21,993 bases of DNA from Clostridia bacterium (GTDB lineage: Bacteria > Bacillota > Clostridia > Oscillospirales > Acutalibacteraceae): NCBI GenBank assembly GCA_017429345.1, contig JAFRPB010000153.1, positions 1 through 21,993 of the forward strand. Direction: 5' to 3'. The notes under the pieces were generated by a model. The model ran no database searches. It was given only the letters and a program-made list of their open reading frames with translations, and was not told where the DNA came from. The position numbers and the translations under genes were made by a program. Shown one piece after another: positions 2,497-21,928 of the stretch (position 1 is the stretch's first letter; each line of letters opens with the position of its first letter).

Positions 2497-3384
2497 TCAG
2501 TTCGCGGTCGTCAGCAGCGCGGCGGCCTTGTTCTCCGCGCGTTTCTGCTGCCTTTTCTTTCTCGCTTTATAGTTCAAAAACTCGTCAAGCTGCTTATCCG
2601 TCGGGCTGCAGTCGCCGATCTGGATCGGCTGCACATTGTACATTCCGCGGAAATCCGTGCCTCCGGTCACGAGCAGCTTGTTTTCTTTCGCGATCTTCAG
2701 AAGACGCGCCTTGTCGGTCTCGCTGCAGCTCGGGTGCTCGACCTCGATACCGTCGAGCATGGGAAGCAGCCGCTCAAGCGTTTCGAAGCTGTCGTTGACG
2801 GCGGGGTTCGCGTAGATCGCAAGGCCGCCCGCGTCGTGGATCGCGCCGATGACGTCCTCCGGCGCTTTGAAAACGGCTTTTGTAAGAATAGAAGAAGGCG
2901 AACCCTCGCCGAAAAGCTCGCCGTACAGCTCGCCGTAGATCCGATCTGTGTGGCCTGCGTCCATCAGCGCGTGCATGATGTGAGACGGAAACAGATTTGC
3001 CGACCCGTTGGAGCGTTTCGCGATGAAATCGGAGGGCAACCCGAATTTCGCGACTGTCTTGAACATCATTCGCTGCCCGGCGCTTTTGCGCGCGGTCTGG
3101 TTCTCGTGACAGAGGCCTTCGAGCCTGTCCGGAAAATCCGGCTGATAGCACAGAATGTGGATCTCTTTTCCGGTTTCCGGATCCGTCGCGGACAGATCCA
3201 CGCCCGGCACGACCTCAACGCCCATCTTTTTACCGATCATTTTTCCGCGTACCGTACCGGCGAGGGAGTCGATATCCATAATGGAGATCACGTCGACGCC
3301 GCGCTTTGCCGCAAGCATGACGAGCTCTTCAAGCCCGACGGAACCGTCGGACAGCTTGGTGTGACAGTGAAGATCGCCTTTCAT
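2497..3384 (-). CDS. PHP-domain metal-dependent phosphoesterase, TrpH/YciV (RnaAM)-like (295 aa)
   Basis: N-terminus MKGDLHCHTKLSDGS...VISIMDIDSLAG matches the PHP-family motif (DLH-HT-SDG...TDHD-like) and the ~290-aa length of TrpH/YciV. RBS AAGGTGG 7 nt upstream. Confidence 0.7.
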   Translation of the reverse strand: MKGDLHCHTKLSDGSVGLEELVMLAAKRGVDVISIMDIDSLAGTVRGKMIGKKMGVEVVPGVDLSATDPETGKEIHILCYQPDFPDRLEGLCHENQTARKSAGQRMMFKTVAKFGLPSDFIAKRSNGSANLFPSHIMHALMDAGHTDRIYGELYGELFGEGSPSSILTKAVFKAPEDVIGAIHDAGGLAIYANPAVNDSFETLERLLPMLDGIEVEHPSCSETDKARLLKIAKENKLLVTGGTDFRGMYNVQPIQIGDCSPTDKQLDEFLNYKARKKRQQKRAENKAAALLTTAN

Positions 3385-3763
3385 TAAATTTCATCCACCT
3401 TTCCTGTGATTTCGGCAGATGCCTTACTTGCAGAAGCGCCATCGGTGTTTCCTTGTGAAGAGGGTAAACGGTAACGGGAGCAACGGTTTTCGCCTTGTGG
3501 GCGGCAATTCAGGCATATCCTGTTTGTGATTTTTATGTATTTTTGACACTACTACTCGAAATTTTATCTTTTTAATGATCCTATTCTACACTATCCGGAA
3601 GATTTTTTCAAGCTTTTTTACGAAATATGTGTTTTTTTGTGAAAAAATATTATAATAGACAACTGATAATCAAATAAAAACAGCTTGATTTATCCGAAAA
3701 ATACAAAAAATCGGATCGCGCGGAGCGTAAATGTAAAATTTTTTTCGGCGTCTTCACGTAAAA

Positions 3764-3801
3764 AACGGAGAGCGCGGACGGTCCGGTCCGTTCTCTCCGT
3801 T
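3764..3801 (-). terminator. Rho-independent terminator for the esterase/GH3 operon (minus strand).
   Basis: Stem aacggagag / ctctccgtt enclosing a GC-rich loop. On the minus-strand RNA it is followed by UUUUUUAC. Lies 34 nt past the stop of the 3835..4875 gene. Confidence 0.55.
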
Positions 3802-3834
3802 CTGCGGTTTTCTTTTTTTCGCTTTTTCTCGCCG

Positions 3835-4875
3835 TTATTCCGCGAGAAAATCAAAAGAACGCGCGCCGTGCACGCGGTGGCGGCCGTCGAATTCGTCGAC
3901 GGTCAGCGCGTCCTCCGCGCCGAAAAGGCGGTAGACCCGTCTTGCCCGTTCGTGCGCGTCGCGCGCGCCTTCGATCGGGAACAGCGGGTCGCGCGTCCCG
4001 GACTCGATCAGGAGCCTCCTCGGCGCGACCGCGGCGGCGAGATCGCCGATCTCGCCGATGCGCAGGATACCGGGGATATAATTGTCCGGGCAGTGCCAAC
4101 GCGCAAGAATGCTCTCGCGGAAGGTACAGGCGTAGCCGCTGACGACCGCGCGGGCGAAGCGTTCGTCCGCCGCCGCGGCGTAAAGCGCGGCAAGCCCGCC
4201 GCCGGAAATGCCCATCACGCCGAGCCGTCCGGGGTCGGTCCCGGGCAGGGACAAAAGAAAGTCCGCGCATGCGATCGCCTGAAACACCCGCACCCCGGCG
4301 GTGTTGAGTCCGTAGATCAATAGGTGATGCGACACCGTGTCGCAGGAGCTCGCGTAAAACGGCTTGCGCAGGTCTTTTGCAAGGCGCGCCTGACCGAACG
4401 CGACCGGCTCCGGCGCGGCGACGATACAGCCGCGCTTCACAAGCTCAAGCGCGAAATGCCGCTGATAATCGTCAAGATACGGCAGACGTTTCGGGCGGTC
4501 GTTTTTCGTCACGCCGATGATCTGCCGCACGCCGTAGCCGTGTCCGCAGAGGGCGACGACGCCCGGCGCGGGGGCGGAGAGCTTCCGCGGCGTCAGCAGA
4601 TAGACCGCGGCCGTCAGCCCCGGCAGCAGCGCGTGCGCGTATTTCTGTATCGTATAGTCTTCCGCGCAGATCGGTTCGCCGACCGGTACGGGTGAAGCGT
4701 TCGTTCTCATATTTTCAAGCACGGGCAGCGCGAGGACTTCGCGCAAGGTTTGCCTGACTTCTTCCGCCGCCGCTTCCGCGGATGCTTTATCACAGACGGA
4801 AGCGAACGGCTCCCCGCGCAGCGTATCGTAAAGCCCGTTCAGAAAGCCGTCCGGGCAGTAATCCTTCCGGGTCAT
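3835..4875 (-). CDS. Alpha/beta-hydrolase fold esterase, probable carbohydrate esterase (dienelactone-hydrolase/acetyl-esterase-like), 346 aa
   Basis: Nucleophile elbow GISGGG (G-x-S-x-G), HGYG oxyanion-like motif and a C-terminal acid/His region. Its start ATG overlaps the GH3 stop (ATGA), implying co-translation with the glycosidase. Confidence 0.6.
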   Translation of the reverse strand: MTRKDYCPDGFLNGLYDTLRGEPFASVCDKASAEAAAEEVRQTLREVLALPVLENMRTNASPVPVGEPICAEDYTIQKYAHALLPGLTAAVYLLTPRKLSAPAPGVVALCGHGYGVRQIIGVTKNDRPKRLPYLDDYQRHFALELVKRGCIVAAPEPVAFGQARLAKDLRKPFYASSCDTVSHHLLIYGLNTAGVRVFQAIACADFLLSLPGTDPGRLGVMGISGGGLAALYAAAADERFARAVVSGYACTFRESILARWHCPDNYIPGILRIGEIGDLAAAVAPRRLLIESGTRDPLFPIEGARDAHERARRVYRLFGAEDALTVDEFDGRHRVHGARSFDFLAE

Positions 4876-6956
4876 CGTTCCGTCTCCGCAAACCGCAGCG
4901 TTCCGGCGGCAAGAAAACTCCGCCCGTCGTTCGTGACGCTGAAGGAATACGCTTCGTCCGGGCGCATCCGTTTTTCTTCGTGGTCGTAGAATGCAAGATC
5001 CTCCGCGCTGACGCAGAGCTCTACGCGTTTCTCTTCGCCCGCTTTGAGCGGGACGCGGGCAAAGCCCTTAAGCAGCTTTATGGGACGGTCGGCGTCCGTC
5101 CGTTCGGACGAGGCGTAGAGCTGCACGACCGCGTCGCCGTCCCTCTCTCCGGTGTTTTTCACTGTAAGACTGACGCGCGCGCCCGTCTCCGTCTTTTCCG
5201 CCGAAGCGTCCGACAGCGAGAATTCGGTATATGAAAGCCCGAAACCGAAGGGGAACTGCACATTCTTTTTCGTTTTGTCAAACAGCGTATAACCGTGATA
5301 ATAGCCGTATCCGATGCTCTTTTTCTCGCTGCCGATGTGCAGGAACGGGGGGTAGTCGTCGGGATCTTCCGCGACCGTGAACGGCAGCCGCCCGCAGGGA
5401 TTCGCGTCGCCGCTGAGGATATCCGCGAGCGCGTTCCCGCCCTCAAGACCGCTGTAGAACGACATGAGAATGCAGTCGGCGAGATCCGACCAATCCTTTA
5501 TTACGTACGCGCTGCCGCCCATGATATCGACGATCAGGGGTTTGCCCGTCTCTTTCAGCGCGCGGATCAGCGCTTCGTCCTCCGCGGGGATACGCAGATC
5601 GGCGCGGTCACCGCCGCTGCCCTTCGGCTTGCTCTTCACGTTGCCGAGGTTGACGAGGAATTCGCCCTCCTGCAGCCAGTCGCTGCCGACGAGGATCACG
5701 ATATAATCGCTGTCTTGCGCCGCTGTCGCCGCCTTGAACGGGTCGCAGCCGTTGTAACAGGTCACGCTGTCCCCGCCGAAGCGGTTGCGGATCCCCTGAT
5801 ACGCCGTGACGGTATAGGGACTGTAGACCTGGCTTGAGCCGTGGTCGCCCACGTTCTTTTTATCGGCGTATCTGCCGACGACGGCGATCTTCGCGCCCGC
5901 GGGCAGCGGCAGCACGCCGTTTTTATTTTGTAATAAGACCGTGCCCTTGACGGCGGCTTCCCGCGCGAGGGCGATATGCTCCGGCGAGAGGATCGCCTCT
6001 TTCGGCACGTCCTTCTGCTTCGGCAGGGTGACGATCAGGGCTTTGAGCACCCGCGTGACCGCCGTGTTGATCTGCCGTTCGGTGATCCTGCCGCGTCTGA
6101 GCGCCGCGCCGAGCAGGGCGTAGCGGAAGATATAGGGCATCTCCACGTCGAGCCCCGCTTTGAGCGAACGCGCGCCGTCGTAGATGCCGAAGAAGAAGTC
6201 GGAGAGCGCGAAGCCCTCGAAGCCCCATTCGTTTCTGAGGATATCGGTCAGCAGGCGGCGGTTCTCGCAGCAGTAAGTCCCGTTGACTTTGTTGTAAGCG
6301 CCCATGATCGACATGGCGCCCGCGTCGATGCACTTTTTGAAATGCGGCAGATATACGTCGTAAAGCGTGCGGTCGTCGCAGCGCGCGTCGACGCTGAAGC
6401 GCAGATCCTCGATCGAATTGAGCGCGTAATGCTTCGGGCAGGCGATGATCCCGTTCTCCTGCATGGCGCGGGTCTGTACCTCTCCCATTCTGCCCAGCAG
6501 AAACGGATCCTCGCCGTAGGTCTCCTGCGCGCGTCCCCACATCGGGTTGCGCAGCAGATTGATACAGATGCCCGCGAACAGGTTCGCGCCGCCCGCCGCG
6601 GCTTCGCGCGCGAACGCCTGCGCGATCCGGGATTCGAGATCCGTATCAAAGCTCGCGCCGCGCATCATCGGCATCGGAAAACAGGTCCCGTGCCGCATCA
6701 CGATCCCGCGCGGTCCGTCGGTGAATTTCACCGGCGGCACGCCCAGGCGACGGCATCCGCCCGCGGCGTACGCCTCGCCGTTATAGTATCTTCCCTTCGT
6801 CAGAAAGGTCTTCGCCGTCGTGCCGAGCGCGTGCCCGCGCAGCATGTGAAGACGCTCGTGCAGCGTCATCTCGCGGCAAAGCGCCGCGGCGGCTTCGTTC
6901 AGCGTTTTTCTGTCGGGGTGTTCCTCATAGATCCTTACGGCGTCCTGAAAATTCAT
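4872..6956 (-). CDS. Glycoside hydrolase family 3 beta-glycosidase (BglX-like), ~694 aa
   Basis: GH3 N-terminal (beta/alpha)8 domain with KHYALNS and nucleophile motif GFEGFALSDF, an alpha/beta sandwich domain, and a C-terminal FnIII-like domain. Start placed at MNFQDAV (6956), where GGAAAGGAG lies 9 nt upstream. The longer ORF-track start at 7157 lacks an RBS and adds an implausible N-terminus. Confidence 0.85.
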   Translation of the reverse strand: MNFQDAVRIYEEHPDRKTLNEAAAALCREMTLHERLHMLRGHALGTTAKTFLTKGRYYNGEAYAAGGCRRLGVPPVKFTDGPRGIVMRHGTCFPMPMMRGASFDTDLESRIAQAFAREAAAGGANLFAGICINLLRNPMWGRAQETYGEDPFLLGRMGEVQTRAMQENGIIACPKHYALNSIEDLRFSVDARCDDRTLYDVYLPHFKKCIDAGAMSIMGAYNKVNGTYCCENRRLLTDILRNEWGFEGFALSDFFFGIYDGARSLKAGLDVEMPYIFRYALLGAALRRGRITERQINTAVTRVLKALIVTLPKQKDVPKEAILSPEHIALAREAAVKGTVLLQNKNGVLPLPAGAKIAVVGRYADKKNVGDHGSSQVYSPYTVTAYQGIRNRFGGDSVTCYNGCDPFKAATAAQDSDYIVILVGSDWLQEGEFLVNLGNVKSKPKGSGGDRADLRIPAEDEALIRALKETGKPLIVDIMGGSAYVIKDWSDLADCILMSFYSGLEGGNALADILSGDANPCGRLPFTVAEDPDDYPPFLHIGSEKKSIGYGYYHGYTLFDKTKKNVQFPFGFGLSYTEFSLSDASAEKTETGARVSLTVKNTGERDGDAVVQLYASSERTDADRPIKLLKGFARVPLKAGEEKRVELCVSAEDLAFYDHEEKRMRPDEAYSFSVTNDGRSFLAAGTLRFAETER

Positions 6957-7024
6957 AAAAGCGCGCTCCTTTCCCGATCCTTCTTCCATTGTATAAAATA
7001 TTCCGCCGCAATGCAATCTTTTAT

Positions 7025-7053
7025 TTGCGTTTGGGGAGAAAATATGGTTTAAT
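7025..7053 (+). promoter_or_regulatory. Putative sigma-70 promoter for the lyase gene: -35 TTGCGT, 17-nt spacer, extended -10 TGgTTTAAT.
   Basis: TTGCGTttggggagaaaatatggTTTAAT located 30 nt upstream of the GGAGAG RBS/ATG at 7084. Confidence 0.4.
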
Positions 7054-7083
7054 AAAGACAGAAAGAAAAAGGAGAGACGGAAA

Positions 7084-9084
7084 ATGCAGATACTGAAAGT
7101 CATTTTGTCGGCGCTCTTGTCTTTGATCAGCGTGTTTACGACGAACGGATTCGGCAAATATACGCCGCATCTCGCGGTGATCCCGGACCTCGTGCGCGTC
7201 GGTGCGGAGGCGCTGCGTCTGAACGTATGGGACGGCGCGCCGGATAAAAAAGAAGTCGCCGCGGCGCTTGAGAATGCAGAGGTCCCGCACCCCTTCGTGC
7301 TCGCGGGCGCGGAGCGGTTCGACCTTCTGCGCTTAGAGTTTGCTTCCGGCGGGGCCCCGGAATACGCTTCGGATCTTCTGAAGTACGTGCTCGCGAACGC
7401 GGACGCGCTGCTCGATACGCAGGTTTTCCCGCCCCTTGCCTACGAGCTCGACGAGGAGAACAGCATCCTGCCGATCTCCCGCGAGACCATGAACCGCATC
7501 GTGATCCTGGGCCTTGCGCGGCAGGTCACGGGCGAGGAAAAATATTTCACTCGCGCGTGGGAAGAGCTCGAGAACGTCTGCAATTATCCCGACTGGTGCA
7601 CCGGGCATTTTCTCGCCACCGCGGAGATGGCGCTCGCCGTCGCGGTCGGGTACGACTGGCTGTATGAGGATCTGACCGACGCGCAGCGCGATCTGCTCGC
7701 CGAAACGACGCTGCAGTACGCGATCAGGCCCGCGATCTCGGCGGTGAATACGGGAAAATGGTACACAACGACGAAGAACAACTGGAACAGCATCTGTTAC
7801 AGCGGTGTCGGCATCGCCTGTATGACGCTTGCGGACCGGTACCCCGCGGAGGCGGCGAAATACCTGGCGAGATGCTTTAAGTATATGCCCGCGGCGTATG
7901 AGAATTTCACGCCGGACGGCGTGTATATCGAGGGCCCGGGCTACTGCGAATCCGGCATGAACGCGATCGTGTATTTCATCGCCACGGCGCGGGAGCGCTT
8001 CGGCACCGATTTCGGCATGTCGGAGCTGCCCGGCTTCCGGGAGCTGGGCATGTTCCCGGTCTATATCTCCGGCAGCGTCGGCGAATTCAATTTCGGCGAC
8101 AACCGGAACCGCGCGTTTTATTCCCCCGCGCTGGACTGGTACGCGGCGAATTATAACGAGCCGCTGCTGGCGGTGCATCAGATGAGCGGCGGCGTGGGCG
8201 AATACGCCGCGGGAGAGCCGGTCTATACGGAATCGAACGGCGACGGCAGGGAGAACGCGCTCTCGGCGCTCTGGTACGACCGCTCGTTCACGGGCGACAG
8301 AGCGCAGTTCTCTTCGCAGCCGAAGAGCGTCTATCTGCGCTCCGACTGCGGGCAGGAGCTGGTGCTGATGCGCTCGGCGTATCTTGAAAAAAACGCGTTC
8401 TTCGTCGGGATGAAAGCGGGCGACAATTTCATCAATCACGGCGATCTCGATATCGGCACCTTCGTTTACGACGCGCTCGGCGAGCGCTGGGCGGCGGAGC
8501 TCGGTCCCGGACCCTACGACGCGCCGGGGTATTTCTTCAACCCGCCCGCGGGCGGCCGCTGGCGCAATTACTGCAAGCGCGCCGAGGGGCAGAATACGCT
8601 CGTGATCAATCCGGATATGACGCTTGACGATCAGTACGCGCTCGCGCGGTGCGTATTCTCCGACGTGGAGATCGGCGACGGCGGCGGCGCGTGCCGGATC
8701 GATCTGACGGACGCCTACCGCATGAACGGCGCGATAAGCGCGGTGCGTTCGTTCGCCTTCGACGCGGATACCGGCGCGCTGACGGTCGCGGACGAGGTCA
8801 AATGCCTTGTGAAAAGCGATATTTACTGGTTCATGCACACCCGCGCCGCGATCGAAATTTCCGAAGACGGCAAAACAGCCGTGCTGAAGCAGAACGGCAA
8901 ACAGATCACGGCCGTTCTCTCGGGCGACGGCGAATTCTCCGTGCGGGAATGCGAATCGCTTAAACCGAATTACGTTTATCCCGAAACGCACGACGGCGTG
9001 CGCAGACTGACCGTCGCGCTCACCGGCGTGCGCGAGGCGAATATTTCGGTACGGCTGGCGCCGGAAATCAGAATATGGAGATAG
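7084..9084 (+). CDS. Secreted heparinase II/III-like polysaccharide lyase family protein (666 aa)
   Basis: N-terminal signal peptide (MQILKVILSALLSLISVFT). Central (alpha/alpha) toroid-type motifs (WNSICYSGVGIACMTLAD) and a C-terminal beta-sandwich with NHGDLDIGTFVYDALGERW, typical of the heparinase II/III-like (alginate/heparin lyase) fold. Divergent from the GH3 operon. Confidence 0.55.
   Translation: MQILKVILSALLSLISVFTTNGFGKYTPHLAVIPDLVRVGAEALRLNVWDGAPDKKEVAAALENAEVPHPFVLAGAERFDLLRLEFASGGAPEYASDLLKYVLANADALLDTQVFPPLAYELDEENSILPISRETMNRIVILGLARQVTGEEKYFTRAWEELENVCNYPDWCTGHFLATAEMALAVAVGYDWLYEDLTDAQRDLLAETTLQYAIRPAISAVNTGKWYTTTKNNWNSICYSGVGIACMTLADRYPAEAAKYLARCFKYMPAAYENFTPDGVYIEGPGYCESGMNAIVYFIATARERFGTDFGMSELPGFRELGMFPVYISGSVGEFNFGDNRNRAFYSPALDWYAANYNEPLLAVHQMSGGVGEYAAGEPVYTESNGDGRENALSALWYDRSFTGDRAQFSSQPKSVYLRSDCGQELVLMRSAYLEKNAFFVGMKAGDNFINHGDLDIGTFVYDALGERWAAELGPGPYDAPGYFFNPPAGGRWRNYCKRAEGQNTLVINPDMTLDDQYALARCVFSDVEIGDGGGACRIDLTDAYRMNGAISAVRSFAFDADTGALTVADEVKCLVKSDIYWFMHTRAAIEISEDGKTAVLKQNGKQITAVLSGDGEFSVRECESLKPNYVYPETHDGVRRLTVALTGVREANISVRLAPEIRIWR
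9064..9078 (+). repeat. Degenerate copy (13/15) of the motif, gaaatcagaatatgg, inside the last codons of the lyase gene.
   Basis: Shares the exact 10-mer aaatcagaat plus a following tgg with the 13260-13274 copy. Chance expectation for a 10-mer in 22 kb is ~0.04. Confidence 0.3.
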
Positions 9085-9111
9085 GAGGTTCGGAAGTAGG
9101 AGGTTCGGAAG
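9082..9111 (+). repeat. Perfect tandem duplication of the 15-mer TAGGAGGTTCGGAAG (two SD-like GGAGG elements), beginning at the lyase stop codon.
   Basis: 9082-9096 and 9097-9111 are identical. They are followed by the palindrome aagtcgcttcgcgactt (9109-9125). Confidence 0.6.
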
Positions 9112-9286: not shown

Positions 9287-9299
9287 GAAAGGAGTCTCC

Positions 9300-10520
9300 A
9301 TGCCCTACCAAGAGCTGATCAAAAATTTTTCCCGGGTACGGGCGTACCTGCGCCAGTTTTACGTTTACGGCTTCCGCAGCCGGAGCGAATTCGACGAAAA
9401 AAGCGCCCGTTCCTATGACGATGAGCGCCGCCGGGTCGAAAGCTGGCTGAGGGAGTACGTGTCCGCCCGCCGCACGCCGGAGGGAAAGAATATCTATATC
9501 TCCGTTGACAGCCGCCGCAGGAGCCGTGATCCTCTTTACCGGGTGTGGAAAACGAAGAGCTTCACCGACGGCGATATCACCTTGCACTTTCTGATCTTTG
9601 ACGTTCTTTATACGCCAACGGCGGCGCTGACTGTAACCGGGATCCTTTTGGGGATCGATGAGCGGCTTTCCGCATTTCCTTCGGCGAAGACCTTCGACGA
9701 GTCCACCCTGCGCAAAAAGCTGGAGGAGTACGTCCGGGAGGGACTGATCGTAAAAGAGAAAAAAGGCAGAGCCGTGTTTTACCGGCGCGCGCAGGGAACG
9801 CCGCTGCCCGAGGCGGACGCGCTGGCGTTTTTCTCCGAAGCTGCGCCCTGCGGCGTGATCGGCTCTTTCCTTGAGGATAAGACCGATGAGCGTCCGGAGC
9901 ATTTTTTATTCAAGCATCATTATATCACCCAGACGGCGGACAGCGAGATCCTTTGCCGCGTCTTCGAGGCGATCTCCGACCGGCGGGAGCTGATCTCCGT
10001 TTCCCGACACCGGGAATCGCTCGCGCGCGTCCTGCCGCTGCGGGTCTATATCAGCGTGCAGGGCGGCAGACAGTATCTGGCGGCTTACGACTTCGATATG
10101 AAACGCGTCGTTTTTCAGCGAATAGACCTGATCGAGTCCGTCGCTGCGGGGCCGGTTTGCGGGGAGTTTGAAACGTACCGGAGAAAACTGGACGGGCTTG
10201 CGCCGCATATCTGGGGCGTAAGTCTCTCCGGCAGAGCGCTCGAGCACGTCGATTTTACGATCCGTTATGAAGACGACGAGCCCCATATTCCCCTGCGCCT
10301 CGAGCGGGAAAAACGCTGCGGAACGGTGGAGCGGCTGAATGCGAATGAAAGCCGCTTTTCCGCCGGGCTGTACGACGCGGGGGAGCTGATTCCATGGATG
10401 CGCACATTTATCGGCAGGATTACGGAGTATCACTTCTCAAGTCCGAAGCGGGAAGAGCGGTTCCGGGAGGATCTGGAACGGATGTATGCACAGTACGGGA
10501 TCGGAGGCGACGAAGAATGA
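9300..10520 (+). CDS. WYL/WCX-like putative ligand-sensing transcriptional regulator, paralog 1 (406 aa)
   Basis: Start at MPYQELIK (RBS AGGAG 7 nt upstream); the longer ORF-track start has no RBS. Central wHTH-like segment (TFDESTLRKKLEEYVREGLIVKEKKGRAVFY). WYL-like strand motif KRVVFQRIDLIESV. C-terminal WCX-like tail ELIPWMRTFIGRITEY. Stop overlaps the next start (ATGA). Family assignment rests on motif recognition, not a search. Confidence 0.5.
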   Translation: MPYQELIKNFSRVRAYLRQFYVYGFRSRSEFDEKSARSYDDERRRVESWLREYVSARRTPEGKNIYISVDSRRRSRDPLYRVWKTKSFTDGDITLHFLIFDVLYTPTAALTVTGILLGIDERLSAFPSAKTFDESTLRKKLEEYVREGLIVKEKKGRAVFYRRAQGTPLPEADALAFFSEAAPCGVIGSFLEDKTDERPEHFLFKHHYITQTADSEILCRVFEAISDRRELISVSRHRESLARVLPLRVYISVQGGRQYLAAYDFDMKRVVFQRIDLIESVAAGPVCGEFETYRRKLDGLAPHIWGVSLSGRALEHVDFTIRYEDDEPHIPLRLEREKRCGTVERLNANESRFSAGLYDAGELIPWMRTFIGRITEYHFSSPKREERFREDLERMYAQYGIGGDEE

Positions 10521-11431
10521 CCTTTTTCAGCGAGCTTTACGGCGCTTATTACAACGCTGTCGCGAAGATCCTTGCCGCCGCCGTGCAAAGCCCCGTGACG
10601 AAGGAGGATATCCGCCGCATCGTGCGGGAGAACGCCTTCGCCGAAAGCGGGATTGAGATCGAATCGGCGATCTTCGCGCGATGGCAGCTGCTTGACGAGC
10701 GGGGCGGAACGCCGCTTCGGCATGTGCCCACGACACCCCTGACGCATCTGCAGAAGCGTTGGCTCAAGGCGGTCTCTCTTGACCCGCGTCTTGCGCTATT
10801 TGACGCGCCTTTTCCGGAGCTCAAGGGTGTGGAGCCGTTGTTTCAACCGGAGGATATCTGTGTGTTCGACCGTTTCACGGACGGCGACCCCTATGGGGAC
10901 GAAACCTATATTCGCATATTCCGCATTATGATGAGCGCGGTGCGGGAGCGGACGCCGCTTTACGTCGAGATGCTTGCCCCGAGAACAGGTGCGCGGAAAA
11001 TGATTCTGCTGCCCCTGAAGCTGGAATATTCTGAAAAGGACGATAAATTCCGTCTGCTTGCGGCGGACGGCAGGGGAGAGGTTACATTGAATCTGGCGCG
11101 GGTCACGCTGTGCCGTCCCTATGACGGTGCGCCGGTGCATTTTGCGAACCCGGCGGATTTTGCCGGCAATCGGGAAGAACGCAACTTTGTGCTTGAACTG
11201 ACGGAAGAGCGCAACACTCTTGAGCGGGTGATGCTGCATTTCGCCCATTTCAGAAAGGAAGCCCGGCGGGCGGAGAACGGCAGATATCTTGTAAGAGTCT
11301 TTTACGAGCGTCCGGACGAGACGGAGCTGGTGATCCGCGTGCTCTCATTCGGCCCCACCGTGACCATCCGCGAACCGGACCGGTTCGCCGGACTGGTGAG
11401 AGAACGGCTTTTGAAACAGTATAAATTCTGA
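10517..11431 (+). CDS. WYL/WCX-like putative regulator, paralog 2 (304 aa), translationally coupled to paralog 1 (PafB/PafC-like pair)
   Basis: C-terminus LVIRVLSFGPTVTIREPDRFAGLVRERL closely matches the conserved WCX tail of WYL regulators (...[VI]LSFGP-V-VLEP-ELRE...). WYL-like segment LPLKLEYSEKDDKFRLLAADG...LNLARVTLCR. GGAGG 10 nt upstream. Stop TGA lies inside motif copy 3. Confidence 0.5.
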   Translation: MTFFSELYGAYYNAVAKILAAAVQSPVTKEDIRRIVRENAFAESGIEIESAIFARWQLLDERGGTPLRHVPTTPLTHLQKRWLKAVSLDPRLALFDAPFPELKGVEPLFQPEDICVFDRFTDGDPYGDETYIRIFRIMMSAVRERTPLYVEMLAPRTGARKMILLPLKLEYSEKDDKFRLLAADGRGEVTLNLARVTLCRPYDGAPVHFANPADFAGNREERNFVLELTEERNTLERVMLHFAHFRKEARRAENGRYLVRVFYERPDETELVIRVLSFGPTVTIREPDRFAGLVRERLLKQYKF

Positions 11432-11486
11432 TTTATCGTTCTGCCGTGATACCATGTGCGCTTGACTCCGCGACAAATCAGAATTT
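11423..11486. repeat. Inverted pair of the motif (AAATTCTGATTTATCG ... CGACAAATCAGAATTT) around a 32-nt spacer. The left arm overlaps the WYL paralog-2 stop codon.
   Basis: 11423-11438 is the exact reverse complement of the 16-mer. 11471-11486 is a 15/16 copy (T to C at position 4) in direct orientation. Confidence 0.6.
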
Positions 11487-11491
11487 AACTT

Positions 11492-11527
11492 CGCATCTTT
11501 TTTTCCGTGAAAAAGGTGCGTTTTTTT
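11492..11527 (+). terminator. Rho-independent terminator after the WYL gene pair: stem cgcatcttttt / aaaaaggtgcg (one G-U), 7-nt loop, then TTTTTTT.
   Basis: Inverted repeat 11492-11502 / 11510-11520 followed by a T7 run at 11521-11527. Confidence 0.5.
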
Positions 11528-11535
11528 GTTATACT
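11527..11535 (+). promoter_or_regulatory. Extended -10 element TGtTATACT immediately after the terminator. Candidate promoter for the long leader/SPFH transcript.
   Basis: TG at -15/-14 followed by TATACT. Weak -35 (cgtgaa). The downstream ~430 nt carry no credible ORF before the SPFH start. Confidence 0.3.
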
Positions 11536-11962
11536 CTTCCTGCAGGATCGCCAGAGCGGGCGCTTCGCGGGAAGCCGCGGCGCTGCGGTGCACAGGATGA
11601 TATCCTTTTTATGTATGCCGGCGATGCTGCGGCGCGTGATAAGCGCATCGTGCAAGGCCGCACATTATTGCGGGTTCGACTCCCGCCGCGAGCAAATCGT
11701 GACCGATGGTTGGTGTTTATTGAGGAACTGCATTTTATGCGTCAGTTGCACAGAAAAAAGAAACGGCGTTCCGGCGAATCGATGCGGAAAATCTTCTCCC
11801 GCGTTTTCGCAGCGCGGACGGAGCCCTGCCTTTCGGCGGATACCGCTTTGCAAAACGGAAGACCGAATTATCCGTCTTTCGCCGGTCGAAGCTCAAGCCG
11901 GGAGCCGCCCCGTCGGCGCGGAACGCCGCGACGCGATCAACCTTTTAGGAGGAATATATATT

Positions 11963-13072
11963 ATGAAAAAAAGTATGATCAAAAAGACCGTCGTTCACGA
12001 GAACGAAAGAGGCCTGCTGTTCAAAAACGGCAGGTTCGTCCGCAGGCTCCTGCCGGGCAGATACTACGCCGTCGGCGACAGCGAGATCGAAACGCTGCCC
12101 GTGTCCGCGCCGCTGCGATCGGCGTTCTGTGAGACGCAGACGCTTCTGCGCGACCCGCAGATCGCTTCGGAGACCGCCCGCGTGGACGTTCGCGACAGAC
12201 AGAGGGCGCTGCACTATGCGGATGGCAGGTTCAAAGAGCTGCTTCCCGTCGGTACACACGTATTCTGGACCGCCGCCGGCGCACACGAATTCCGCGTGCT
12301 GGACGCCTCCGTTCCCGATCTGCCGGAGGATTTTCCCCGCGACATTCCGGCTGACATTCTCGGCAGTGACGTCTGCACGTTTGTGATCCATGCCGAAGAG
12401 GTAGGACTGCTGTTCGTCAACGGCAGGTTCGACCGTCTGTTGGAAGCCGGCGTCCACGCGTTTTGGGATCTGCCTGAGTTCCGGGTCTCCGTACGCTGCA
12501 GCGATACTCAGCTGCAGCAGATGAATATCTCCTCGCAGGAGCTGCTGACCGCAGACCGGGTCACGATCCGCGTCAATTTTGTGGTCGGCTGGCGCGTCAC
12601 CGACCACGTCCGTGCGGCGTTGGAGCTGGACAATCAGACAGAACTGCTTTACACCGCCGCGCAGCTGGTGCTGCGGGAGGTCGTCGGCAAATACCGCCTT
12701 GACGAGCTTCTGGAACATAAAGAGGCCCTCTCCGGCGAGGCGCTGGAGCTGCTGCGCAAAAAAGCGGAGTCCCTCTTCGCCGAGGTGACCGACGCGGGCG
12801 TAAAGGATATCATTCTGCCCGGCGAGGTGCGGGATATCATGAACACTGTCCTGGTGGCGGAAAAGCGCGCGCAGGCCAACGTCATTACCCGCCGTGAAGA
12901 GGTCGCTTCCACCCGTTCGCTGCTCAACACGGCGAAAATGATGGAAGAGAATCCCACGCTTTATAAGCTCAAGGAGCTGGAATATGCGGAGCGCATCTGC
13001 GAGAACGTGGGAAATATCAACCTCAACGGCGGGGACCTGCTCGGCGGGCTACTGGCGGTGTTGGGAAGGTAA
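11963..13072 (+). CDS. Cytoplasmic SPFH/band-7 (stomatin-prohibitin-flotillin-HflKC) domain protein with a triplicated N-terminal motif (369 aa)
   Basis: AGGAGG RBS 10 nt upstream of ATG 11963; the 5' extension of the ORF track is Arg/Cys-rich junk. SPFH core (RVNFVVGWRVTDHVRAALELDN...LREVVGKYRLDELLEHKEAL...VKDIILPGEV...AEKRAQANVITRREE), then a coiled-coil tail. Three N-terminal repeats of G-LLF-NGRF---LL-G-H-FW. No N-terminal TM helix. Confidence 0.65.
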   Translation: MKKSMIKKTVVHENERGLLFKNGRFVRRLLPGRYYAVGDSEIETLPVSAPLRSAFCETQTLLRDPQIASETARVDVRDRQRALHYADGRFKELLPVGTHVFWTAAGAHEFRVLDASVPDLPEDFPRDIPADILGSDVCTFVIHAEEVGLLFVNGRFDRLLEAGVHAFWDLPEFRVSVRCSDTQLQQMNISSQELLTADRVTIRVNFVVGWRVTDHVRAALELDNQTELLYTAAQLVLREVVGKYRLDELLEHKEALSGEALELLRKKAESLFAEVTDAGVKDIILPGEVRDIMNTVLVAEKRAQANVITRREEVASTRSLLNTAKMMEENPTLYKLKELEYAERICENVGNINLNGGDLLGGLLAVLGR

Positions 13073-13285: not shown

Positions 13286-13840
13286 ATGAAACATACTGTC
13301 GACCGCGGAGAGCTTTGGGACGCATGTAATTATTCCTTTCAATATGCTGATAAGTTTCCCACACGATATTATAATATCAACGACGAACGCATCGAAGCGC
13401 TTGAGGATGTTCTCGTCGCGCTGAATATTCCACAGACCCGATTTCAGACTTATTATTATGATTACGATTATATCCCCATTCCCGTGACGCCGCTGGTGCC
13501 CGCGCTGAAAGCCTACGTCGAAACGGTGAACGATAAAAACATCCGCCGTGCGCTGCGCGACGTGCCGGATGACAGATACGAATGCGCTTTTAACCGTATC
13601 TGTTGGGATGACCGGGAATTCCGTCACGGCTGGAATGAGTTTTCCGCGGATATCGTAAACGGGGTCTGTGAGCGGTGGTGCGCGGAATACAATGTGACGC
13701 CGATCCGGGATCCCAGATGCGCATGGACCGGGGAAAAAGACAGGGAGTTCAATGCCGCTTCCGCCCGCAGAATGCAGAAAGAATATGAAGCGTCGAAAGG
13801 GCGGTTCCGAAGATATCGGAAAGAAAAGAGCAAATATTGA
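13286..13840 (+). CDS. Hypothetical Cys/Trp-rich protein with a basic C-terminal tail (184 aa), no recognisable family
   Basis: Good RBS (AGGAG, 5-nt spacer). Codon usage consistent with neighbours. Conserved-looking Cys pairs (CAFNRICW, VCERWCAEY, PRCAWTG) and a KGRFRRYRKEKSKY tail. Directly upstream of the rtcB remnant with an 24-nt gap. Confidence 0.45.
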   Translation: MKHTVDRGELWDACNYSFQYADKFPTRYYNINDERIEALEDVLVALNIPQTRFQTYYYDYDYIPIPVTPLVPALKAYVETVNDKNIRRALRDVPDDRYECAFNRICWDDREFRHGWNEFSADIVNGVCERWCAEYNVTPIRDPRCAWTGEKDREFNAASARRMQKEYEASKGRFRRYRKEKSKY

Positions 13841-13864
13841 ATTTTTAAAGGAAGTGAACCGGAA

Positions 13865-14192
13865 TGATTGCCGTTTACGGAAAATACAATACAGCCCTTT
13901 GCTACTGCTCCGTTTCGGAGGAGGCTGCGGCGGAGCAGATCAGAACGATTTGCGACAGGGCGAGTTCGCGGCTTCGTGTATCCGCATCATGCCCGACGTG
14001 CACGCCGGCAAAGGCTGCACCATCGGCACAACGATGACGCTGACCGACAGGGTCGTGCCCGCGATGGTCGGCGTCGATATCGGCTGCGGAATGCTCACGG
14101 TCAAGCTGAACGCGCGGGAGCTTGACTTTGCCCAGATGATCATCTGCCGCTGCGGTTCCGTAACAGGGGGCGTGCAGTTTATGGAGAAATAA
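13865..14192 (+). pseudogene. rtcB: RtcB RNA-ligase remnant: N-terminal ~110 codons only, with a -1 frameshift near 13950, then truncation
   Basis: Frame-2 start MIAVYGKYNTALCYCSVSEEAAAEQIRTICD continues in frame 0 as (Q)GEFAASCIRIMPDVHAGKGCTIGTTMTLTDRVVPAMVGVDIGCGM. This matches the N-terminus of bacterial RtcB (MPDVHxGxG...VGVDIGCGM). Re-reading the shared c at the junction restores ...ICDQGEFAASCIRIM. The ORF ends ~35 codons after GCGM, whereas intact RtcB is ~400-480 aa. Followed by a terminator and a low-GC gene on the opposite strand. Confidence 0.6.
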
Positions 14193-19675: not shown

Positions 19676-21928
19676 ATGATGAGGAAGTGTTTGTCTTTTT
19701 TCATGACTCTGGTTCTCCTGCTTACCGCGTTTCCGGTCGGCGCAGTTTTCGCTCACGCCGCAGAAATCATTGACAGCGGTGAATGCGGCGAAAACGTAAC
19801 ATGGACGCTGGACAGCGAGGGTGTTCTCACGATCGAAGGCGAGGGAGATATGTTTAATTGGGAGGATCCCGACGGAATCGTATCACCCTTCTGTGATATG
19901 GGTAATACCATCTCTGAAGTCAATATAAAAAACGGCGTAACAAGAATCGGAGATTATTCGTTTTACGGATGCGGCAGCCTGACTTCGGTCGCTATTGCGG
20001 ATAGTGTGACGGCCATAGGCGAGGATGCGTTTTACGGCACCGCGTATTATAATGATAAAACCAACTGGATCGACGGTGTGTTATATATCGATAATGCTTT
20101 GATCAAAGCTGACGAAGAAGCAATTGCCGAAAATTATACAATAAAAAAAGGTACAACGGTCATTGCCGATAAGGCATTTATCTATTGCACAGATCTGACG
20201 GGCATCATGATCCCCGACAGTGTGACAAGCATTGGTTTTTACGCTTTTTTTTATTGCACCGATCTGACAGATATAACGTTTCCGGACAGCGTGACAAGCG
20301 TTGGCGATTATGCGTTTTATAATACGGATTATTATAACAACGATAAAAATTGGGTCGACGGCGTATTATATTTCGGCAAGGCATTGATCAAAGCTGACGA
20401 AGAGACCTTAAACGGAAGCTATGCGATAAAAGAAGGAACAAAGGTCCTTGCCGACGGAGCGTTTTTCAACTGTAACCGTTTGACGTCGGTCAATATTCCG
20501 AACAGTATCATCAGAATCGGCAGTTCTGCGTTCGGCAACTGTAAAAACCTGACTTCGGTAACGGTTCCGGATAGTGTGATGAGCATCGGCAGCGCTGCGT
20601 TTGTAGGCTGCAGCAACATGACCTCGGTAACGATTCCAAACGGTGTGAGGAGCATCGGCAGGGCTATGTTTGGTGAATGCAGTAAATTGACGTCATTCAC
20701 GGTTCCGGACAGCGTGACGGGCATTTGCGATTTTGCGTTTTACAGCTGTCGTAATCTGAAGACGGTCGCTATCGGAAAAAATGTAACAAGTATCGGGGAG
20801 TCCGCGTTTTACGATTGCCGCAGTTTGACGTCGGTCACGATCCCGGACAGCGTGATAAACATCGGGGAGTGCGCATTTTCCGATTGCGCCGGGCTGACGT
20901 CAGCCACGCTCGGAGACAATGTGATAAGCGTTGGCGAGAGTGCGTTTTCCGATTGCAGCAGCCTGAGGTCTGTTGCGATCGGAGACAAAGTGACGAGCAT
21001 CGGGGACGCGGCATTTTTCAATTGCAACAGACTGAAAAAAGTAATTTATTCCGGCAGTAAAGATGACTGGGACGAAATCGAGATCGGGAAAGAAAACGAT
21101 GATTTAATCGGCGCGAAAATGCAATACTTGAGGGTTGCTTCCGAAACGACAGAGACTTCCTCCGTGACGGCAGCTCCCACTACAAACGAACCCCCGACTG
21201 AAACGGAATCTTTGACCGCAACGGAACCCCCGACTACAACGGATGTTCCAATTGCAACGGATGCCCCAACCGGAACGGAAGCGCCGACTTCGACAGAAGT
21301 CACGACCGCGACGAAACCCGCGACTACGACGGAACCCACGACTACGACGGAACCCACGACCGCGACGGAACCTGCGACTGCGACGGAACCCACGACTGCG
21401 ACGGAAACGCCGGCCATTACCGAACCTGTCAAGGCAATCGAATCCAAAGACGCGGAAAAGGCGATTGTGAATGCCGAAAAGAAACAGGTCGCGATCCGGC
21501 CCGGGCAGTCGCCCGACGAGCTGAAAGACCTTCTCGGCGGGAATGTGATGATCCTCGGCGCGGACGGCAAGGCGCTTGACGCGGGCAAAAAAGTCGGCAC
21601 CGGCTGTATCGTTAAAACTCCCGACGGCGCGGAATACACAATTGTCGTCCCCGGCGACACGGACGGCGACGGCAAGGTCGGCGCGTCCGACGCGAGAAAA
21701 GCCCTTCGCGCCTCGGCAAAGCTTGATTTGCTTTACGGCGCGTACGGCAGAGCAGCGGACATCAACGCCGACGGCAAGATAAAAGCCGCCGACGCACGCT
21801 CGATCCTGCGCATCGCCGCGAAGCTCGACGAGATCACAAAAGATATCCTTGCTAAGGCAACACCGCACAAATGCGAATGCGCGTCTTGCTTGATCTTTGT
21901 TTCGTCATCCTGCACAGCTTTTTCTTGA
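19676..21928 (+). CDS. Secreted cellulosome-associated surface protein: BspA-type leucine-rich-repeat domain, Thr/Pro/Glu-rich linker, C-terminal type-I dockerin (750 aa)
   Basis: Signal peptide MMRKCLSFFMTLVLLLTAFPVGAVFAHA. ~15 tandem ~23-aa LRR_5 units (IPDSVTSIGxxAFxxCxxLTSVTI). Linker TEPTTTTEPTTATEPATATE. Dockerin Ca-binding pairs DTDGDGKVGASDARKALRASAKL and DINADGKIKAADARSILRIAAKL, resembling Ruminococcus-type dockerins. Confidence 0.75.
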   Translation: MMRKCLSFFMTLVLLLTAFPVGAVFAHAAEIIDSGECGENVTWTLDSEGVLTIEGEGDMFNWEDPDGIVSPFCDMGNTISEVNIKNGVTRIGDYSFYGCGSLTSVAIADSVTAIGEDAFYGTAYYNDKTNWIDGVLYIDNALIKADEEAIAENYTIKKGTTVIADKAFIYCTDLTGIMIPDSVTSIGFYAFFYCTDLTDITFPDSVTSVGDYAFYNTDYYNNDKNWVDGVLYFGKALIKADEETLNGSYAIKEGTKVLADGAFFNCNRLTSVNIPNSIIRIGSSAFGNCKNLTSVTVPDSVMSIGSAAFVGCSNMTSVTIPNGVRSIGRAMFGECSKLTSFTVPDSVTGICDFAFYSCRNLKTVAIGKNVTSIGESAFYDCRSLTSVTIPDSVINIGECAFSDCAGLTSATLGDNVISVGESAFSDCSSLRSVAIGDKVTSIGDAAFFNCNRLKKVIYSGSKDDWDEIEIGKENDDLIGAKMQYLRVASETTETSSVTAAPTTNEPPTETESLTATEPPTTTDVPIATDAPTGTEAPTSTEVTTATKPATTTEPTTTTEPTTATEPATATEPTTATETPAITEPVKAIESKDAEKAIVNAEKKQVAIRPGQSPDELKDLLGGNVMILGADGKALDAGKKVGTGCIVKTPDGAEYTIVVPGDTDGDGKVGASDARKALRASAKLDLLYGAYGRAADINADGKIKAADARSILRIAAKLDEITKDILAKATPHKCECASCLIFVSSSCTAFS

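Follow-up and report, generated by a model that had tools for sequence, protein, structure and literature searches.

Introduction

The closest described counterparts of the locus reported here, two adjacent genes (open reading frames ORF1 and ORF2) in a 21,993-nucleotide (nt) stretch of DNA from a Clostridia bacterium (GenBank assembly GCA_017429345.1, contig JAFRPB010000153.1; hereafter the window), are transcription factors with a WYL and a WCX domain. In PafBC, the helix-turn-helix (HTH) of PafB reads the promoter, the HTH of PafC contacts sigma, and single-stranded DNA (ssDNA) spans both WYL domains (PMC11804915). PafBC is also the sole heterodimeric WYL factor reported so far, according to the same 2025 paper (PMC11804915). 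DriD from Caulobacter, BrxR and CapW share the winged HTH (wHTH)-WYL-WCX fold with the pair (E-values 1e-9 to 1e-5) and are local regulators of neighbouring genes, as we propose for the pair. However, they are single-gene homodimers acting on symmetric sites, and their targets are DNA-damage or phage-defence genes. Unlike BrxR and CapW, the genes of the pair always come as two, and defence neighbours were not found beside them. The Cas13d accessory protein WYL1 resembles the pair in fold and through the WYL model of PADLOC, but the pair is not located in a type VI-D CRISPR-Cas locus.

A functional counterpart is RtcR, the CARF-AAA+ sigma54 activator of rtcBA, which is likewise a dedicated regulator beside an RtcB operon with a nucleic-acid-sensing domain. 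Its signal consists of tRNA fragments (PMC7790460). In Salmonella, the operon also contains an orthologue of Ro60 and tRNA-like Y RNAs. However, the likeness would be in function only, as the proteins are unrelated and no CARF, AAA+ or sigma54-interaction domain is found in the pair with Pfam or NCBIfam.

To our knowledge, the switching-on of RtcB RNA-repair operons is known only for Proteobacteria, where RtcR is responsible, and nothing has been described for the Firmicutes that dominate the gut. We also know of only one heterodimeric WYL factor, PafBC, and of no nucleic-acid signal for WYL factors other than ssDNA. Burroughs and Aravind (2016, NAR 44:8525) reportedly described RNA-repair operons that are centred on RtcB and combine SPFH/Band-7 or Ro/TROVE-like scaffolds with cognate tRNA-like RNAs. 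Our literature search found no paper tying WYL proteins to RtcB operons in Firmicutes, although an earlier notice in a comparative-genomics study is possible.

Here, we describe ORF1 and ORF2 together with their surroundings. We consider it probable that together they form a wHTH-WYL-WCX transcription factor of two different subunits (a heteromer, most likely a heterodimer) that controls an adjacent RNA-repair cassette. The pair is common in nature and already loosely annotated, yet uncharacterised. Among its new features, the candidate operator is the most useful one, as it is sharply defined.

A coupled gene pair conserved in Clostridia

The pair and its translation signals are located as follows.

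9300..10520, + strand: ORF1, 406 amino acids (aa), the putative large subunit, with an N-terminal domain, an ArsR-like wHTH, a conserved linker, a WYL and a WCX-like domain
10517..11431, + strand: ORF2, 304 aa, the putative small subunit, with a three-helix N-terminus, a conserved linker, a divergent WYL and a WCX domain
9287..9294, + strand: Shine-Dalgarno-like GAAAGGAG before the ATG of ORF1, read directly from the sequence
10517..10520, + strand: ATGA stop/start overlap suggesting translational coupling, seen in the sequence; an overlap or a gap of at most 2 nt in 72/74 other species

The junction reads gaagaATGAcc, in which the ORF2 ATG and the ORF1 TGA share 4 nt. The two adjacent, overlapping ORFs are where the original prediction, made from the letters of the window, had placed them, and all peptides it quoted are present in the translations.

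Homologues of each ORF fall into more than 6000 clusters at 90% identity, with E-values down to 1e-150 and about 55% identity, and many of them already carry the NCBI name "WYL domain-containing protein". A genome scan for the pair recovered at least 572 species loci, all of them from Clostridia; the 80 closest were analysed together with further contigs of the window's own species, on which the same locus is found. An ORF2 homologue lies directly 3' of ORF1 in all 81 of the 81 loci that have room for it. The 74 junctions consist of 44 with a 4-nt overlap, 21 with a longer overlap and seven with a gap of 0-2 nt, i.e., stop and start overlap in 65/74. Both ORFs are genuine, strongly conserved genes.

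The two genes also exist as one. Among the best 150 representatives in a library clustered at 50% identity, 11 are single-chain ORF1-linker-ORF2 fusions of 685-855 aa with a low-complexity linker (P0274, P0278, P0289, P0297, P0298, P0312, P0326, P0335, P0352, P0379 and P0384). They match ORF1 and ORF2 each over the full length, and the order is always ORF1 first. One of them, P0297, is a called gene on two contigs and is transcribed divergently from an rtcB-Band_7 operon (locus L086, 4097-6487). Its position beside rtcB and Band_7 shows that the linkage survives a change of gene order.

The two ORFs had been called paralogous. With BLASTP, they show no similarity to each other (E > 3). A profile-profile comparison with hhalign relates their WYL+WCX halves (E 1.4e-4 / 3.7e-4, probability 53% / 37%), and a domain-wise comparison of the N-terminal parts detected no relationship. 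At the sequence level the label is therefore weakly supported, while by fold both resemble the same regulators.

Domain architecture and fold

AlphaFold2 (AF2) monomer models of both proteins were searched with Foldseek against the PDB. For ORF1, the top matches are PafBC, DriD, CapW and BrxR (E 8e-9 to 1e-6, probability 1.00), and for ORF2 DriD, PafBC, BrxR, CapW and WYL1 (E 4e-9 to 3e-5, probability 1.00). The matched entries include PafBC 9fnd, DriD 8tp8 and WYL1 6oaw, the latter at E 3e-5 for ORF2; WYL1 is among the fold matches of both proteins, whose E-values together range from 4e-9 to 1e-4. Judged from these models, both proteins resemble wHTH-WYL-WCX regulators in fold, in line with the original prediction of a tandem, coupled and divergent PafB/PafC-like pair. 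The pairing, the conserved overlap, the fusions and the family-level profiles point the same way. The predicted domains are the following (pLDDT, predicted local distance difference test; H, helix; E, strand).

9300..9584, + strand: ORF1 residues 1-95, family-specific N-terminal domain, predicted H-H-H-beta-beta with pLDDT below 50
9594..9845, + strand: ORF1 residues ~99-182, ArsR/SmtB-like and PaaX-like wHTH (profile 2e-3 to 2e-2; AF2 H-H-H-E-E, pLDDT 80-90)
9933..10169, + strand: ORF1 residues ~212-290, Sm-like WYL domain (PafB profile match, Pfam in relatives; AF2 helix and five strands)
10170..10493, + strand: ORF1 residues ~291-398, WCX-like domain with PWMRTFIGRITEY (AF2, full-length Foldseek alignments, hhalign pairing with the ORF2 WCX)
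10901..11119, + strand: ORF2 residues ~129-201, divergent WYL domain with EYSEKDDKFRL and NLARV (PADLOC model; AF2 strands with pLDDT 80-90)
11150..11425, + strand: ORF2 residues ~212-303, WCX domain with VIRVLSFGPTVTIREPDRFAGLVRERL (Pfam WCX in 33/39 relatives; AF2 pLDDT 80-94)

At the sequence level, the window proteins stay below the Pfam cut-offs of 21.8 bits for WYL (PF13280) and 23.9 bits for WCX (PF25583). ORF1 alone reaches 15.0 bits for WYL (E 0.026) and an equally sub-threshold E of 0.0075 for PaaX, and ORF2 alone 19.1 bits for WCX (E 0.0017). No matches were found for either protein in NCBIfam or in single-sequence searches of the PDB, nor in the PDB for the profile built on the ORF2 side (A2). 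The family gives a clearer picture. Pfam WYL is matched by 34/39 relatives of ORF1 (scored at E <= 0.01) and Pfam WCX by 33/39 relatives of ORF2. A profile of 100 diverse ORF1 relatives finds PafB (6.3e-6), the fused PafBC (1.1e-4) and ArsR/SmtB winged helices (2e-3 to 2e-2), and the best sequence match of ORF2 is the Cas-associated WYL model of PADLOC (5.8e-8 over residues 127-298). Of the features that define the class, HTH-WYL-WCX (Mueller et al. 2019), the WYL of ORF1 and the WCX of ORF2 are thus found at the family level.

These results qualify what had been read from the letters. WYL-like motifs had been seen in both proteins: the FQRIDLI motif indeed lies in the WYL domain of ORF1, which is a Pfam WYL domain in the family and not in the window copy. 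WCX tails had been assigned to both ends; this agrees with Pfam for the ORF2 family, while the C-terminal domain of ORF1 has no Pfam WCX match and is supported as WCX by its fold. The N-terminal halves had been described as unlike a classic wHTH. In ORF1, a wHTH is present after all, internally, behind a 95-residue domain. Few parts of the protein are as conserved as this domain, which has 35 invariant columns in the family alignment and no sequence relative in Pfam, NCBIfam or the PDB, also when searched with a 29-sequence profile. The description is borne out in part only, ORF2 having three N-terminal helices without a sequence-level HTH match.

The two WYL domains are unequal. That of ORF1 contains the motifs GRQYL (Y259) and FQRIDLI (R274, D276), of which Y259, R274 and D276 are conserved, so the WYL tyrosine and the first conserved arginine are kept. 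In ORF2, an invariant arginine (KFRL) stands at the place of the tyrosine, and Pfam WYL is matched by 0/39 relatives, though the PADLOC model and the predicted fold both match. Two linkers, residues 170-213 of ORF1 and 56-125 of ORF2, are conserved and predicted with low confidence. Such conserved segments may fold upon complex formation, by analogy with the PafBC linkers.

A nearly invariant block upstream of the cargo

k-mer counting over the 320 nt 3' of ORF2, followed by an alignment of 70 loci, each from a different species, revealed a block between the pair and the genes downstream of it (the cargo).

11489..11511, + strand: 23-nt block cTTCGCAtCTTTTTTTCCGTGAa (consensus GTTCGCAaCTTTTTTTCCGTGAT), putative operator and -35 region of the cargo promoter (alignment of 70 loci)
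11507..11535, + strand: promoter-like site GTGAAA-17 nt-TATACT, with the -35-like GTGAAA at 11507-11512 and the TATACT box at 11530-11535
11492..11520, + strand: window-specific hairpin and T-run, likely terminator of the ORF1-ORF2 transcript (free energy -13.7 kcal/mol)

The block, GTTCGCAACTTTTTTTCCGTGAT / GTTCGCAaCTTTTTTTCCGTGAT, is nearly invariant in the 70 loci despite a protein identity of only about 50-57%. In most cases, it lies 27-29 nt past the ORF2 stop. In 65/70 loci, a TAnAAT box is found exactly 33 nt past the C of CTTTTTTT, which leaves a 17-nt spacer after GTGATa. One copy is present per locus within the roughly 20 kb scanned, always at the cassette, with the exception of L065, where a second copy (9510-9530) is located about 470 nt upstream of ORF1.

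In 65/70 loci, a hairpin forms between GTTCGCAACTTTTTT and an arm upstream of it, AAAAAAGTTGCGrAC, with G-U wobbles and compensatory changes, and this hairpin is likely the intrinsic terminator of the pair's transcript. The 3' arm and the sequence following it are, however, conserved much more strongly than a terminator would require. The block is kept in five loci without the pairing arm, among them the window. There, within 11423-11520, an inverted pair of a dispersed repeat replaces the usual arm, and a substitute hairpin with a T-run is formed with downstream sequence, shifted by about 25 nt into the cargo-promoter spacer. The block also stays directly upstream of the cargo despite insertions of 0.6-3.7 kb 3' of ORF2 (L006, L052, L039 and L068). 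A related block, GGTTCGCAATATTTTTTAAATGAT-17 nt-TAAGAT, precedes rtcB in the divergent locus L086, at a place near which no regulator gene ends. Because it is kept without the arm, is single-copy, follows the cargo after insertions and is present in L086, the block belongs to the cargo promoter.

Upstream of ORF1, a k-mer search found no conserved motif; only the ribosome-binding site and A/T-rich words recur. There is therefore no evidence for autoregulation through the block, L065 being the exception.

RNA-repair genes and a structured RNA beside the pair

To describe the context, ORFs were called in the 80 loci, clustered and then identified by Pfam, and cargo was counted in the 55 loci with at least 4 kb of downstream sequence. 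In 50/55, cargo is located downstream on the same strand: RtcB in 36, DUF2828/DUF7788 in 26, RlaP in 12 and SPFH in eight. The genes upstream of the pair show no conservation among the 80 loci. This cargo, which combines RtcB and RlaP with a tRNA-like RNA and either an SPFH or a DUF2828/DUF7788 protein, fits the operons that Burroughs and Aravind reportedly described. The DUF2828 protein is presumed to be "Ro/TROVE-like"; no sequence match to Ro60 was found for it in the PDB. RlaP is named in Burroughs & Aravind 2016 (per PMC12776372).

In the window, two cargo genes follow the pair.

11963..13072, + strand: SPFH/Band-7 protein, first cargo gene, 369 aa (Pfam Band_7 2.6e-29)
13864..14138, + strand: rtcB remnant, residues 1-92 of ~419, with a frameshift near 13975 and then truncated (tblastn with intact RtcB proteins)

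Both had been noticed in the original prediction, which saw an unusual arrangement in a WYL pair next to them. The genes are there, but the arrangement is the standard context of the pair across Clostridia. RtcB and SPFH are among the conserved neighbours of the pair; the defence genes also considered are not. The window SPFH gene clusters with SPFH genes 3' of the pair in ten other loci. A 135-aa fragment of the rtcB remnant gives a Pfam RtcB match, and the remnant ends against a convergent GtrII-like gene. An adjacent rtcB is absent in 7/8 SPFH-type loci counted, and its decay in the window is thus nothing aberrant. Pair, promoter, RNA and SPFH gene have all stayed intact there.

Two further observations concern possible cargo. 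Between the SPFH gene and the rtcB remnant lies a 184-aa ORF (13286-13840) without a Pfam match, found only in contigs of the same species and preceded by a copy of the dispersed repeat. In L083, the block (2998-3018) is located upstream of an 886-aa protein (3515-6175, no Pfam match) that precedes ORF1 and is a possible alternative cargo.

A conserved RNA appears to be encoded in the interval from the promoter block to the first cargo gene, at about 11542-11960 in the window. The sites in the window and elsewhere are listed here.

11542..11700, + strand: 5' part of a conserved structured non-coding RNA in the window (alignment with nine other SPFH-type loci; boundaries uncertain)
L008, 3253-3315: RNA site
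L013, 9787-9847: RNA site
L018, 12499-12570: RNA site
L026, 12360-12421: RNA site
L047, 12241-12302: RNA site
L079, 2569-2635: RNA site
L086, 2557-2567, - strand: RNA site

In the window, a T-arm-like hairpin, GCGGG-TTCGACT-CCCGC, is found at 11670-11686, with its pairs kept via two compensatory changes. SPFH-type loci have their own conserved RNA with one or two T-arm-like hairpins, which differs from the RNA of DUF2828-type loci. In the latter, weak Rfam tRNA matches (34-53 bits) are located just before the DUF2828 gene; a few of these are also called by ARAGORN, as odd tRNAs. The T-arm motif of L086 sits in the spacer between rtcB and Band_7; the RNA thus stays with the SPFH gene although rtcB comes first there. 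Neither Rfam nor ARAGORN called the intergenic RNA of the window, and folded alone it is no better than shuffled sequence (z -0.25), so that the case for it is cross-species conservation.

A proposed mechanism and its alternatives

We suggest that the pair is expressed from its own promoter and that its transcript ends at the hairpin and T-run overlapping the block. The binding site of the complex would be the asymmetric block GTTCGCAAC-T7-CCGTGAT, located at about -53 to -29, and its main DNA reader the ArsR-like wHTH of ORF1. A single-stranded nucleic acid bound across the two unequal WYL domains would then switch transcription of the cassette: the tRNA-like RNA, the SPFH or DUF2828/DUF7788 protein, the RtcB ligase and the RlaP nucleotidyltransferase. 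This ligand would be produced by damage and is plausibly cleaved RNA, by analogy with RtcR; the alternative is ssDNA, as in all characterised WYL factors. As the -35 element is weak and the block lies upstream, we favour activation, as by PafBC and DriD, over repression, as by BrxR and CapW. Functionally, the pair could then correspond to RtcR, the CARF-sigma54 activator of Proteobacteria, on a PafBC design.

Several points weigh against this proposal. The models come from shallow alignments, with a mean pLDDT of 64.7 for ORF1 and 73.7 for ORF2 and predicted template modelling scores of 0.38 and 0.43. The N-terminus of ORF2 consists of three helices in AF2 and has no HTH match at the sequence level in Pfam or with the profile. 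The nucleic-acid ligand of the characterised WYL transcription factors is ssDNA and not RNA. The block serves both as a terminator T-run and as a promoter, which accounts for part of its conservation. Finally, none of the four cargo families is found nearby in 5/55 loci, and in the window rtcB itself has decayed.

A more far-reaching version can only be put forward tentatively. Obligate two-subunit WYL factors, split or fused, might have arisen a second time and independently, as a class of their own that is widespread in gut Clostridia. The pair would sense RNA damage via asymmetric WYL domains and switch on an RNA-repair cassette (tRNA-like RNA, SPFH or Ro-like scaffold, RtcB and RlaP) from a bifunctional terminator/operator/promoter. 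It would then stand for RtcR in Gram-positive bacteria and, among WYL factors, be the first to respond to an RNA-derived signal.

Among the alternatives, a DNA-damage sensor survives best, although we regard it as unlikely. Here, the pair would be activated by ssDNA like PafBC and DriD, possibly with a wider regulon, and the RNA-repair cassette would be its nearest target only. This would agree with the structurally characterised top fold matches, PafBC, DriD and CapW, which all bind ssDNA, and the Salmonella rtcBA operon is expressed in the SOS response (PMC9879122). However, the block occurs once in the roughly 20 kb scanned per locus and always at the cassette, and no DNA-repair genes are linked to the pair among the conserved neighbours.

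It is less probable still that ORF1 and ORF2 are two independent homodimeric regulators in one operon, for example an autoregulator and a cargo regulator. All reported WYL factors other than PafBC are homodimers (PMC11804915), and the strongly different N-terminal halves of the two proteins would suit separate roles. However, co-occurrence in 81/81 loci, a conserved stop/start overlap and repeated ORF1-ORF2 fusions are not expected together for independent regulators, which would also have to share a single conserved DNA block, with none upstream of ORF1.

We give similarly little weight to the idea that the proteins are RNA-binding subunits of the repair machinery rather than transcription factors, whose Sm-like WYL and ferredoxin-like WCX domains would hold tRNA-like or damaged RNA for RtcB, as WYL1 assists Cas13d. 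WYL1 (6oaw) is among the fold matches, the Cas-associated PADLOC model is the best sequence match of ORF2, and a structured RNA is encoded beside the pair; no cas genes were found among its neighbours. Such subunits would, however, leave unexplained the well-predicted ArsR-like wHTH of ORF1, the terminator-like hairpin followed by a separate promoter between pair and cargo, the sequence-invariant DNA block at promoter distance and, in L086, a pair transcribed divergently from the cargo.

That the proteins are BrxR/CapW-type repressors of a phage-defence island is very improbable in spite of their good fold matches to BrxR and CapW, as PADLOC gives a generic WYL model and no system match, defence genes are absent from the conserved neighbours, and a single IMG/VR contig carries a relative of the pair. 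A phage origin of the pair was rejected on the same ground, this one contig being the sole link to phages.

Coming back to the proposed heteromeric regulator, the pair follows a PafBC-like design without being orthologous to PafBC. PafBC is its best fold and profile match, and both consist of tandem polypeptides, of predicted HTH-WYL-WCX type in the case of the pair, with asymmetric subunits that are fused in some lineages. However, the pair is found in Clostridia and PafBC in Actinobacteria, and the pair is linked neither to pafA nor to proteasome genes; its linked genes serve RNA repair, not DNA repair, and PafBC controls the DNA-damage regulon. The subunits of PafBC are close homologues while ORF1 and ORF2 are not, ORF1 has the extra 95-residue N-terminal domain with its wHTH internal and ArsR-like, and the WYL domain of ORF2 lacks the tyrosine. 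The promoter block is distinct as well, including the -35-like element at 17-nt spacing.

The pair thus offers a second, very different candidate for a WYL heteromer. In practical terms, it comes with a precisely defined candidate DNA site, natural fusions for structural work, cultured carrier species such as Ruthenibacterium lactatiformans, Anaerotignum lactatifermentans (DSM 14214) and Faecalimonas umbilicata (DSM 103426), and the cassette with its tRNA-like RNA as a readout. It raises the questions whether WYL domains can read RNA damage and how the asymmetry of the subunits relates to that of the operator. It also provides a functional context for thousands of entries named "WYL domain-containing protein".

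Repeats and surrounding genes in the window

The dispersed repeat mentioned above, CGATAAATCAGAATTT, is present in ten copies in the window, seven of them exact, against 0.13 expected. The copies are found at these positions.

184, + strand: repeat copy
9065, + strand: repeat copy
9275, + strand: repeat copy
11423, - strand: repeat copy
11475, + strand: repeat copy
13071, - strand: repeat copy
13096, + strand: repeat copy
13261, + strand: repeat copy
16188, - strand: repeat copy
16222, + strand: repeat copy

Inverted pairs follow right after the stop codons of ORF2, the SPFH gene and the diaminopimelate (DAP) dehydrogenase gene, and single copies stand just before the ribosome-binding sites of ORF1, the 184-aa ORF and the first gene. 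The repeat looks like a REP-like (repetitive extragenic palindromic) element specific to this organism. As AAATCAGAATTT occurs before ORF1 and twice after ORF2, it was considered as a shared operator and rejected; its ten window copies lie at many unrelated gene boundaries, and the loci of other species lack it.

A 15-nt tandem direct repeat, GGAGATAGGAGGTTC / GGAAGTAGGAGGTTC, spans 9077-9106 across the stop codon (9084) of a heparinase II/III-like gene. This gene belongs to the surroundings of the locus (4872-9084 and 19676-21928), which also encode a glycoside hydrolase family 3 (GH3) protein and a BspA-type leucine-rich-repeat (LRR) protein with a dockerin. These genes are unrelated to the pair and point to a fibre- or glycan-degrading Clostridia host.

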